From contig JACQUX010000019.1 in the NCBI GenBank assembly GCA_016210045.1, positions 4,102-68,101 on the forward strand: a stretch of DNA of 64,000 nucleotides, read 5' to 3'. Below, piece by piece: positions 29,562 to 32,800 of this stretch (its first letter is position 1; the number at the start of each line of letters is the position of its first letter). Under the pieces are notes generated by a model, which worked only from the letters and a program-made list of their open reading frames with translations, was not told the origin of the DNA and did not search any database. Origin of the DNA: Deltaproteobacteria bacterium (lineage in GTDB: Bacteria > UBA10199 > GCA-002796325 > JACPFF01). The translations under genes were made by a program, and so were the position numbers.

Positions 29562-29852
29562 CTACCGCACGCGTTGCAGTATGTGTAATAAAGCGCTGAT
29601 TCCCCATGCCACACAGTACGCCCAGAGCAGGATGGTTATGACGAGCAACGGCACTGAGAGCCAGTATGTGTCAAACAGGCCGATTTTTTCTAGCAGATCG
29701 GCGACCAGCAAGGGCACGGGATTGAGCACGTCATTAAAGCGTAGGACAGCACTATAAAATGAGGGGGGATGCACAAATGTGATCGAGCAATATACAAAAT
29801 TCATAAAACAGAGACCGAAGACTGGCACCCAAATTATTGGTTTCGGCTTCAT
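29562..29852 (-). CDS. Candidate immunity protein for the main RHS toxin; small 3-TM membrane protein
   Basis: Very AT-rich ORF; its ATG overlaps the RHS stop (ATGA at 29849-29852); three hydrophobic helices. Confidence 0.6.
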   Translation of the reverse strand: MKPKPIIWVPVFGLCFMNFVYCSITFVHPPSFYSAVLRFNDVLNPVPLLVADLLEKIGLFDTYWLSVPLLVITILLWAYCVAWGISALLHILQRVR

Positions 29853-32800
29853 CGTGACGTCCATGTTCCGGAGGTACTTGGTGCGCGCGTTGAACTGGTA
29901 AAGAAAAAACTGGGTTCTGTGATGACAGGTGTGGTTCGTATCGGTGGCGCCCCGATAACTCCGGGAGCTCGCTCAAAATTATGTTGGCTATAGCTGCGGC
30001 AGATATCTGTGATGCCGTAAATGCCCGTGTTGCCTACTTCAGATGAAAGCTGTGCATTAAAGGTGACATCTTGAAATGGGGTAGTGCGCTTAAACGCTTC
30101 AATAATCCCGCCTGGCTTTGTGTCGCGATATACCTCACCTTGTAATAACCATCTTCCATTCATTCCAAAGCTATACGAACTATATGTTCCATTTGGATCT
30201 CCCACGCTGATACTTTGATGCCGATAAGGTTCATACGAGTTTGGGCCCTCAATCCAAATGTCAGTACCATTGGGATCGCGCCAATTCACCGGATTATTCC
30301 CCACGTACCGATACAAATTCGCATCGCCGCTCGCGAGACCGAGCGGGTCTTCGGTGAGGAAGCGGCCGAGGCTGGGGTCGTAGTAGCGGGCGCGGTAATA
30401 GTAGAGGCCTGTCGCGGCGTCCCATTCGCGGCCGGTGAAGCGGAAGGGAGGCTGCTCCGCGGTCGGTCCGGTCGCGGCAAGCGGGCGACCGAAGCTGTCG
30501 TATTGGTACGTGGCGAGATCGGCCGTGGTCTTGCCGGCGACTTGGATCACATTGCCTTGGCCATCGACATAGTAGTGGCGGACGACGTCGTCGCGGATCT
30601 CGAAGAGCGGCTGGTCGATGCCGGGGCCGAAGAAGTATTGGGCGATGAGATTGTTTTCGCCGTCATAATCGGCGATCCGCTGGACGCCATCGTAGACGTA
30701 GCGTTCCGTGGTCGTCACTCCCACCACCGTTTGTTGTCGCTCGATCCGGCGACCGAACGCGTCGTAGTTGAAATCGACGACCGCATCGCCGGACTGCACT
30801 CGGCGGAGTTGATCGAAGGCATCCCAGGTGTAGGTGGTCGTGAGGCCGTCGCGGATCTGTTCGGTCAGACGCCCGGCGGCATCCGTGGTGTAGCTATTGG
30901 TCACTGCGTCCCGGAGCGTGGCCAAGATCCTGTTGGGGGCGAGGTACCAATACTGCGTGTCGTCGGGGCCAGTGAGGCGGTTGCCGGCGACGTCGTAGGT
31001 ATAGGCCTCCGCAGGGTTGGTGGCGCTCAAGAGTTGGTCGAGCGGGTCGTAGCTGAAGGCCCGAGTGGTCGCCACATCCGTGCGCGCGACGATGTTCCCG
31101 ACCGCGTCGTAGCCGTATTGCAGCAGGTGTTGACCGTGCGGGCCATTGAACGTGATCTGCGCCACCCGACCGCGGGGGTCGTATGCCAGTGCTTGTGAGT
31201 CGTACGCCGTACTCCACCGCGAAGTCCAACGGCCGCCCTGGTCGTACGACAAGGAGGCACTGCCATCGTAGAGATCGGTGCTCACGCGGGTCCACCGCCC
31301 TGCGAAATCGAAAATCCGCTCGATCTTATGGGGCAGTCCGGTGATTCGGCTCGATTCCTGGCTATGCCACCAGTGATAATCGAGCGTCAGATCGGGACCG
31401 GTGCCGGATTGGGAGATCGCCGGGCGACCGGCGAGGTCGTAGGTGTAGGTATAGGTACGGTCCACGGTGGCCGCGCTGAGGAGCAGTCCGTCGGCATCGT
31501 AGGTGAACGAGGCCGTTTCGCCATCCGCGCTGCGGGTCACGAGTTGACCGGCTGCATCGTAGCCGAATTCAATCGTAGCGCCGGTCCGTGTGGCGATCCG
31601 TTGCAACTGCCGATTCCAGTCGTACGCACGCGTCTCGGTCGCGCCCTGCGGATCGGTCCACGCCGTAAGTTGTCCCAACGCATCGTAGGTATAGCGCCAG
31701 GTATTCCCGAGCGGATCGCTCCAGTGGGTCACCCGTTCCGCCGGACTACACCCGCAGCCGGCGACCTCGTAGCCGAGATCAGTCACGCCGCCGTTAGCAT
31801 CGACGAGCTGGCTGAGGCGGTTCATGGCATCGTACGCAAACTGCGTGGACTCGCCATTCGCGTTGGTGATGTGTGTTGGATTGCCGGCGGCGTCGTAGGC
31901 GTACGTCGCCACCGTGCCGAGCGAGTCGGTCACGGCCACGACGCGCCCTTGGGCGTCCCGATCGAGAGTCGTTGTCGTGCCGAGCGGATCAGTCACCGTC
32001 CGCACCAGCCCGGCAACGTCGTAGGCATAGGTCGTCGTCGCATTGTTGTCGTCGACTGCGGATAGGATGCGCCGTTGCTCATCGTAGGTGTAGCGCCTCC
32101 CGATCCCTTGTGTCTCGAGCTCCGCCACGTTGCCCTGGGCATCGTAGGCCACGTCGACGTCCCAAGCCTCGTTGCCCCCACCGCGCGTGTAGTCCGTCAG
32201 TCGGCCCATCGCGTCGTACTGGAAGTGCGTGGGGCGACCCTCCGGAGAGAGGATCTTGACCGGACGCGATTGGGCGTCGCGCGTGATCGTGGTGACACGG
32301 TCGAGCGGGTCGGTGGTGCGGGTGACAAAGCCGCGGCGGTCGAAGGCATAGGCCCATTTCCCCCCCTCGCCGTCGGTGAATGCCGTCGTGGTCGCCGCGG
32401 GTGGTGCGGGCAACGGATCGCTCTCCGTCCCGGCGTCGGCCGTTACGGAACCGTCGTAGTGTACGGTCTCCAGTTGCCACGTCTCGTCGGTGGGAAAGGC
32501 GACGCTCGTGACCGCGCCCGATGGGGTAAAGGTGTAATGCGTTGTCTCTCCCTGCGGATCGGTCTTCATGACCATACGGTGGTCTGTATCATACGTGAAC
32601 TGCCAACGGCTCCCATCCGGGAGCGTCAGGGACGTGAGGTTGCCATGGTCATCGTGATCGAGTTGCGTGGTACGCTGCTGCGGGTCGGTGATCGATTGCA
32701 GCCGGAAATCCGCGTCGTAGGTCAGCAACGTGATCTGACCGAGCGGATCGGTCATACTGCTCAGACGCTGATCGTCGTACGAGTACTTGGTCATGCGGCC

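Follow-up and report, generated by a model that had tools for sequence, protein, structure and literature searches.

In a 64,000-nucleotide stretch of a Deltaproteobacteria bacterium genome (GCA_016210045.1, contig JACQUX010000019.1, positions 4,102 to 68,101; hereafter the window), we analysed the 3′ end of an RHS protein gene on the minus strand and a small open reading frame (ORF) that overlaps its stop codon. Together they are a real and well delimited cassette, typical of RHS toxin-immunity cassettes. It is very probable that this cassette encodes a Cys-His toxin of the circularly permuted NlpC/P60 type and a membrane immunity partner. The complete reading, in which the region is a single toxin-immunity cassette at the end of the RHS protein and the toxin attacks lipids, is one that we favour to a modest degree. 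Coordinates throughout are those of the window, and the features concerned are the following:

29849..34348, minus strand: RHS carrier protein MBI4237965.1 (P0003), 1499 amino acids (Pfam, NCBIfam and the NCBI record)
30263..30502, minus strand: Rhs-associated core ending ...NPVNWRDPNGT, the expected autoproteolytic junction (TIGR03696 match)
29933..30262, minus strand: folded toxin core, tail residues 1-110, with a predicted circularly permuted papain-like NlpC/P60 fold (AlphaFold2, Foldseek, hhalign)
30218..30220, minus strand: codon CAT of His15, the putative catalytic base, present in 125 of 125 and 81 of 81 aligned sequences and pairing with PPPDE His38
29999..30001, minus strand: codon TGC of Cys88, putative nucleophile opening helix 88-98, present in 124 of 125 and 81 of 81 aligned sequences and pairing with PPPDE Cys108 and with the NC-motif Cys of PLA2G16
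29852..29932, minus strand: disordered Ser/Thr-rich toxin tail, residues 111-137, ending SGTWTSR (predicted local distance difference test, pLDDT, 56-68)
29562..29852, minus strand: candidate immunity gene, 96 amino acids, its ATG lying in an ATGA shared with the toxin stop, 2-3 membrane helices (position, overlap, hydrophobicity)
29527..30262, minus strand: island of low GC content (0.46-0.49) made up exactly of the toxin, the small ORF and a 35-nucleotide spacer (GC profile)

A probable toxin domain behind the RHS core

The carrier protein consists of an NHL beta-propeller, a YD-repeat shell with ~19 YD/RHS repeats, an Rhs-associated core and the toxin tail. Pfam matches to RHS_repeat (3.2e-89), TEN_NHL (1.8e-40) and NHL (1.7e-31) were obtained, and the NCBIfam model TIGR03696 (Rhs_assc_core) matched residues 1411-1489 with 3.4e-26. 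The longest RHS ORF runs from 34732 to 29849 on the minus strand, its first ~128 codons overlapping the upstream gene in another frame; the NCBI start lies later and gives MBI4237965.1, labelled 'hypothetical protein'. The toxin tail opens at the codon right after the junction, between ...RDPNGT and DIW, and comprises 137 amino acids from DIWIEGPN to SGTWTSR (30262..29852, minus strand; stop codon 29851..29849). The first-pass annotation had the protein continue beyond ...NPVNWRDPNGT for about 150 amino acids; the continuation is there, but it is shorter than stated and ~110 of its residues are folded. Upstream sequence is available for 129 homologues, and in 114 of them a boundary of the form D..G(L/T) followed by D(I/V)W directly precedes the toxin domain. 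This supports the earlier view of the tail as a separate toxin module: a variable C-terminal domain placed directly behind an Rhs-associated core that ends DPxG(L/T). Autoproteolytic cleavage at the core junction and encapsulation of the toxin in the YD shell are established RHS biology, and by analogy we infer that the RHS protein of the window would be cleaved after DPNGT.

No Pfam or NCBIfam model matched the toxin tail at E ≤ 1, in agreement with the statement of the first-pass annotation that it could not be assigned to a known toxin family, and none of 81 family members was matched by any NCBIfam model. A word-indexed protein search with the toxin returned two homologues only, 62-63% identical to the tail, one of which follows an RHS junction while the second is attached to an unrelated N-terminus of 95 amino acids, so that an exhaustive hidden Markov model (HMM) search was needed. 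The three-sequence profile was run over all 1.84 billion representatives of clusters at 50% identity and recovered 324 clusters at E ≤ 1e-3, 175 of them at E ≤ 1e-10. Counts of position, length and tail composition were taken on the best 150 of the 324 profile matches: the domain lay at most 40 residues from the C-terminus in 145 of these proteins, and 11 carriers exceeded 1000 amino acids. A tblastn search of plasmids gave nothing. Related loci came from Citrobacter, Buttiauxella, Pseudocitrobacter, an Erwiniaceae isolate, Roseateles, Steroidobacteraceae, Cellvibrionaceae, Bdellovibrio, Prochloron and a Bacillota metagenome-assembled genome (MAG), and where source names were looked up the proteins were annotated merely as 'hypothetical' or 'RHS-associated'. 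All in all, the toxin tail belongs to a large C-terminal domain family for which there is no curated model.

Alignment of the 81-sequence set revealed that Gly21, Gly52 and Tyr82 are invariant alongside His15 and Cys88, and that Asp1, Trp3, Glu5, Gly6, Glu11, Ser17, Tyr45, Asp47, Asp65, Arg89 and Ser92 are nearly so. The string tgttccatttggatctcccacgctgatactttgatgcc, quoted in the first-pass annotation, is the plus-strand complement of the His15 codon and its neighbours. His15 and Cys88 are separated by 73 residues in the window toxin, and this spacing varies between 70 and 93 across the family, with a median of 75.

Structure prediction of the residues after DPNGT, which the first-pass annotation had proposed, returned a permuted papain-like fold. 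An AlphaFold2 model computed with three sequences reached a pLDDT of 41.5 and was discarded; with 81 homologues, the mean pLDDT was 89.4, with values of 94-98 over residues 1-110. The predicted topology is five beta-strands and a long helix, followed by a further strand and by a helix that opens with Cys88. Both the strand at 17-21 and the helix at 88-98 are present, and the His precedes the Cys. Such an order, in which a strand bearing the His comes first and a helix opening with the Cys follows, marks the circularly permuted papain-like arrangement of the NlpC/P60 superfamily (PMC10318531). Among PDB entries, Foldseek found credible similarity to one family alone, that of the Aichivirus A 2A H-box/NC protein (probability 1.0, E 0.02-0.1, template modelling score 0.47 by query and 0.62 by target), and a viral library gave the equivalent 2A regions of parecho- and kobuvirus polyproteins. 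The predicted fold of the tail is similar to that of solved permuted members of the superfamily. According to a preprint (bioRxiv 10.1101/2024.04.06.588386), the 2A H-box/NC proteins are homologues of the lipid-modifying enzyme PLAAT3.

Profile comparisons pointed in the same direction. The human PPPDE and PLA2G16 query sequences used were exact matches to PDB chains 3EBQ and 4FA0. In the hhalign alignment of the family profile with PPPDE (3EBQ), which spans 79 columns (E 0.007), His15 falls opposite His38 and Cys88 opposite Cys108; with PLA2G16 the region of the NC motif alone was aligned (E 0.006). A Pfam scan of the 81 members taken singly produced four matches to PPPDE/Peptidase_C97 (best 4.9e-5) and four to LRAT. 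For PF05903 (Peptidase_C97) the best member scored 23.7 bits against a gathering score of 29.2, at profile positions 94-124, and the window tail had no match to it at E ≤ 1; for PF04970 (LRAT) the best member scored 18.1 against 24.3 bits, around the NC motif. Searching PDB sequences with a profile turned up nothing beyond a chance match to a ribosomal protein. Placement of the toxin in the permuted NlpC/P60 superfamily is well supported, and its membership of any named family is not.

Behind the folded core, the Ser/Thr-rich end of the toxin recurs in the family. The last 30 residues are at least 30% Ser/Thr in 72 of the best 150 homologues, and the closest subfamily keeps a C-terminal motif, G-[TS]-x-T-S-[RKQ], after a Ser/Thr-rich linker; the motif was seen at the toxin 3′ ends of loci L002, L009, L010, L012-L023, L027 and L029. 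We considered whether the conserved TSR could be a by-product of the ATGA overlap or of a ribosome-binding site, and rejected this explanation. Synonymous codons vary within the motif, and locus L015, which has no overlapping gene, retains it; the constraint thus acts on the protein. The idea that the low-complexity C-terminus is out-of-frame junk was also rejected, since it is conserved in homologues. This conserved motif is a concrete and testable oddity of the toxin.

The overlapping membrane protein

The ATG of the small ORF overlaps the toxin stop codon in an ATGA, as had been noted from the sequence, and an alternative in-frame ATG at 29864 would give a protein of 100 amino acids. The length of 96 amino acids given by the first-pass annotation holds, and its three hydrophobic helices hold in part: Kyte-Doolittle analysis in 19-residue windows yielded clear segments at ~5-27 and ~57-87, whereas the middle one, at ~33-55, is weaker and amphipathic. 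Three helices are plausible.

Downstream sequence was available for 21 related loci, two obtained by look-up of the encoding contig and the rest from species-representative genomes. An ORF of 80-101 amino acids with 2-3 predicted membrane helices follows the toxin directly in 20 of them, and in 17 the two genes share a 4-nucleotide overlap, so that a small gene directly downstream of the toxin is a conserved property of these loci and the coupling proposed for the window is common in the family. The small proteins of the related loci can be aligned with one another and share an initial M-K/R, a helix, a short loop in which a Tyr is conserved, two further helices and a conserved Arg near the end. 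Divergence of toxins and partners is correlated (Mantel r 0.59, a value reached in 0 of 5000 permutations), shared ancestry contributing to the correlation.

The small ORF of the window does not resemble these partners in sequence, and this speaks against its assignment. An HMM built from the 19 other immunity ORFs gave it -0.4 bits, a score exceeded by 374 of 501 controls (the reversed sequence and 500 shuffles). No match to the family immunity ORFs was obtained by BLASTP or in six frames, and an index of 5.8 billion proteins contained no homologue except the ORF itself, despite the fact that the window toxin is ~60% identical to the toxins of related loci. A search between 29450 and 29950 for a homologue of the family immunity genes that is frameshifted or lies in another frame was also negative. 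The ORF carries no NCBI accession, the record running straight from MBI4237964.1 (an orphan RHS protein) to MBI4237965.1 (the main one), and it appears solely as a 100-amino-acid gene call on a 947-bp Logan contig. Self-match alone, a score below shuffled controls, the missing NCBI call and a carrier gene that may be frameshifted (see below) would all fit an ORF that is not a working immunity gene, being instead a chance, decayed or replaced sequence, with protection encoded elsewhere or absent in this MAG.

We regard such an explanation as very improbable. Ninety-six stop-free codons at the local base composition (49% GC) would arise with a chance of ~0.01, as estimated from base frequencies, and the ORF exactly spans the gap between the toxin and the next cassette. 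Its ATGA overlap is found in 17 other loci, and it falls in the same length class with the same hydrophobic pattern. The other frames of the 29562-29852 stretch are neither hydrophobic nor matched to the family. A motif like F-x-x-x-P-S-x-Y closes helix 1, as it does in the two closest loci, which is suggestive. It is thus position and type, not homology, that make the small ORF an immunity candidate, and it most likely protects.

Two of the related loci depart from the common arrangement. In L028:4001-4703, from an uncultured Buttiauxella sp., the toxin is broken into two ORFs by a frameshift or stop and the downstream membrane ORF of 101 amino acids is intact; this looks like an immunity gene that has outlived its toxin. 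L015:749-1884, from an uncultured Parafilimonas sp., is the sole related locus without a small membrane ORF. There, a 228-amino-acid protein with an N-terminal signal-like helix begins 26 nucleotides after the toxin and may represent a different type of immunity.

Composition and neighbourhood of the cassette

GC content is 0.653 in the RHS body, 0.474 in the toxin tail and 0.485 in the small ORF (0.602 over the whole window), so the sharp drop reported by the first-pass annotation is confirmed; at third codon positions it is 0.78 for the RHS body and 0.42 for the toxin tail. The drop begins at the first toxin codon and extends to the next RHS-core fragment at 29526. Copies of the RHS-core repeat are located at 30287-30644, 29197-29494 and 28087-28251, and the copies downstream are the usual layout of displaced toxin-immunity modules. 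The low GC content together with the downstream orphan cassettes indicates that the module was acquired via recombination at the conserved RHS core sequence, the composition break and the orphan core-plus-toxin units being signs of recombinational displacement. The RHS island is flanked by rimP-nusA-infB on one side and by a Glu/Leu dehydrogenase gene and dnaK on the other, and no type VI secretion system (T6SS) genes were found adjacent to it.

The orphan RHS cassette next to the small ORF (MBI4237964.1, 28780-29526, minus strand) is intact, and its RHS-core fragment is 86-94% identical in DNA to the main gene. Its tail of ~130 amino acids contains a LAS-metallopeptidase-like motif (…DHWH) and gave weak matches to Pfam Peptidase_M15_3 (E 0.22) and to the Sonic hedgehog N-domain (E 0.6). 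It is followed by a 168-amino-acid ORF (28277-28783, minus strand) that starts with a lipoprotein-like signal and of which NCBI annotates 107 amino acids. Judged by these sequence features, the orphan cassette appears to combine a LAS-type peptidase-like toxin with a lipoprotein-like immunity protein, a pairing which suggests that the RHS array carries envelope-acting cargo. The third RHS-core copy (28087-28251, minus strand) is interrupted by a stop and a frameshift (…GLYYSRAAITT and a stop codon, then RRYYDLNEDPLGL in another frame) and is a decayed orphan remnant. Below it, ~1.6 kb (26075-27261) with two ORFs of 172 and 205 amino acids had no Pfam match.

Upstream of the carrier, a 385-amino-acid ORF, MBI4237966.1 (34333-35490, minus strand), has a lipoprotein-type signal (…LALAG followed by C) and a CarboxypepD_reg domain. 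It shares the stretch near 34333-34400 with the RHS ORF, read in a different frame, and its last ~60 amino acids resemble the beginning of an RHS shell. A 2353-amino-acid homologue, P0143, aligns to both MBI4237966.1 and the RHS ORF as one polypeptide. The two are probably a single teneurin-like gene (TTR-like, NHL, YD shell) that has been split by a frameshift, either genuine or an assembly error.

Related systems and possible targets

The nearest characterised analogue of the cassette is Tox-Act1/Imm-Act1, the Salmonella T6SS effector STox_15 and its immunity protein (Nicastro et al., PLoS Biol 2026, PMC12994826). Tox-Act1 is a permuted NlpC/P60 domain that is toxic solely in the periplasm, needs His43 and Cys151 and cleaves phosphatidylglycerol and phosphatidylethanolamine, and Imm-Act1 is a two-helix membrane protein that neutralises it (PMC12994826). 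Like the window family, Tox-Act1 is a C-terminal domain of polymorphic toxins; it is carried on RHS, PAAR and filamentous haemagglutinin proteins and went unrecognised by existing HMMs. The two share a permuted core with His before Cys, and in both the immunity gene overlaps the toxin end and encodes a small protein with transmembrane helices, which is a likeness of kind and not homology. Motifs of Tox-Act1 were obtained by translating the mutagenesis primers of S7 Table (VETTG-H-GAAFVSV and DVTGNN-C-TTHSVE). The Cys motif N-N-C-T-T-H-S is similar to N-T-C-R-S-Y-S of the window family, with N-x-C-x-[ST]-x-S in common, and the His motif E-T-T-G-H-G-A to E-P-x-G-H-Q-S, with E-x-x-G-H in common. 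In contrast, His and Cys are 108 residues apart in Tox-Act1 (H43, C151) and 73 in the window toxin; relatives of Tox-Act1 tend to match the Pfam model of a sister clade, DUF4105 (S3 Table), whereas 0 of 81 members of the window family do so at E ≤ 1; and the window family has a Ser/Thr-rich tail with a fixed C-terminus and a partner of 2-3 helices instead of 2. Judging from these primer-derived motifs, the spacing and the Pfam matches, we provisionally treat the window family as a separate family of the same kind. Accessions and genera tied to the window toxin family were not found in the tables of PMC12994826. Two S3A entries of Tox-Act1 match Peptidase_C97 instead, so the published clade may already touch the window family.

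TseH/TsiH of Vibrio cholerae (VCA0285/6; PMC4453574; DUF6695) offers a second comparison. TseH is likewise a permuted NlpC/P60 Cys-His effector, with an HHpred link to Peptidase_C97; its toxicity is periplasmic and neutralised by the downstream gene, and relatives of it are fused to YD/RHS proteins. Phospholipase activity has also been reported for it (PMC12994826). Unlike the window toxin, TseH is a free T6SS cargo of 223 amino acids and not an RHS tail; 0 of 81 members of the window family match DUF6695, and the TseH structure was not among the Foldseek matches.

Outside the effectors, PPPDE/DeSI enzymes (PF05903, MEROPS C97; 3EBQ, 2WP7) have the same catalytic order and spacing (His38...Cys108 versus His15...Cys88) and similar motifs (H-[TQ]-S-I-x-V ... 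[FY]-x-F-G and N-C-x-x-[FWY]-S), but they are eukaryotic or viral deubiquitinases or deSUMOylases that act on proteins, and their structures were not returned by Foldseek. The PLAAT/HRASLS-LRAT enzymes and the picornavirus 2A H-box/NC proteins (PF04970; 4FA0, 7ZV6) include the best structural matches, the 2A proteins, and the helix and NC motif of PLA2G16 can be aligned with the toxin. Enzymes of the PLAAT/LRAT type have the permuted fold and act on lipid substrates at membranes, forming an acyl-thioester (PMC10318531). They differ in having a C-terminal membrane anchor where the toxin has its Ser/Thr-rich tail, and no counterpart of the second His of the LRAT triad is apparent in the toxin. 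The canonical NlpC/P60 amidase effectors (Tse1/Tae1, Tae2, Tae4) are papain-like Cys-His interbacterial effectors of the same superfamily; in these, Cys comes before His, the substrate is proven to be peptidoglycan and immunity is provided by soluble periplasmic Tai proteins (partly after PMC10318531).

Action at the membrane or in the periplasm, as the first-pass annotation proposed for the toxin, agrees with the experiments on Tox-Act1/Imm-Act1 (PMC12994826) and would carry over to the window by analogy. In the mechanism that we propose, the aspartyl protease of the RHS core would cut after DPNGT and free the toxin inside the YD shell, and the toxin would then reach a neighbouring cell. There, the Cys-His pair would form an acyl-thioester and then hydrolyse or transfer the acyl group of a membrane-embedded substrate, at an acyl or amide bond. 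A glycerophospholipid would be the likeliest substrate, with a lipoprotein or another lipid-linked envelope molecule also possible, and the outcome would be a build-up of lysolipid and failure of the membrane. In sibling cells, the 96-amino-acid protein would bind the toxin at the membrane and block it. That the substrate is a membrane lipid, an assignment made by analogy, we hold tentatively, as a serious possibility. Several observations weigh against this mechanism. The PPPDE/DeSI enzymes, closest to the toxin in their motifs, are isopeptidases and not lipases. The hhalign probabilities to PPPDE and PLA2G16 are 5-6%, and the Pfam matches to PPPDE and LRAT lie below gathering scores and are confined to the helix and Cys motif. 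RHS cargo usually acts in the cytoplasm (PMC12994826), and the carrier gene may be split by a frameshift, in which case the system in this MAG may not function.

The toxin could instead be a peptidoglycan amidase or endopeptidase like Tse1/Tae, which would hydrolyse gamma-D-Glu-meso-diaminopimelate bonds or isopeptide-type cross-links within the periplasm while the membrane protein keeps it off the sacculus. Its membership of the NlpC/P60 superfamily, the closeness of its motifs to the isopeptidase family PPPDE (PMC10318531), the initial interpretation of TseH as a cell-wall hydrolase (PMC4453574) and the resemblance of the neighbouring orphan toxin to LAS cell-wall peptidases all fit such an activity. 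It is the canonical, non-permuted branch, however, that targets peptidoglycan, whereas permuted members except PPPDE target lipids (PMC12994826), and cells poisoned with Tox-Act1 lysed with the sacculus intact (PMC12994826). Moreover, a partner of 80-100 amino acids that is nearly all transmembrane has no periplasmic domain with which to cap a soluble hydrolase. We consider a peptidoglycan target unlikely.

A cytoplasmic cysteine peptidase, isopeptidase or deamidase acting on a protein target, sequestered by its partner at the inner face of the membrane, seems to us still less probable. The mostly cytoplasmic action of Rhs-fused effectors (PMC12994826) and the presence of PPPDE-like His and Cys motifs would agree with it, but immunity to cytoplasmic toxins is normally soluble, and the partner is membrane-embedded in 20 of the 21 loci. 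The fold matches point to relatives among lipid enzymes, and a bacterial ubiquitin-like target is not evident.

A variant that goes beyond plain hydrolysis of phospholipids takes account of the conserved end of the toxin. As a member of a distinct PPPDE-like branch of toxins directed at membranes, the toxin might be an LRAT-style acyltransferase that moves acyl chains to a hydroxyl acceptor, for example its own G-T-x-T-S-R tail, which would make it self-lipidating and self-anchoring, or it might act on lipoproteins or lipid-linked envelope precursors. In the same joint reading, the carrier in this deltaproteobacterial MAG would be a teneurin-like RHS protein, exported by Sec and anchored as a lipoprotein, that delivers the toxin without a T6SS. 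We give this combination a small chance.

The toxin family falls within a recently described kind of toxin: that permuted NlpC/P60 domains can serve as antibacterial toxins against lipids was shown only in 2026, on the basis of one characterised family, Tox-Act1, and of a reinterpretation of TseH (PMC12994826). The window points to a second, large and widespread family of this kind, with at least 324 clusters at 50% identity, spread over Enterobacteriaceae, Burkholderiales, Cellvibrionaceae, Bdellovibrio, a cyanobacterial symbiont and a Bacillota MAG. With a model derived from the alignment of 81 sequences, these toxins and their usually unannotated membrane partners could be named, and the compact enzyme of 110 amino acids could be used to probe how far lipid targeting reaches within the PPPDE/LRAT clade.

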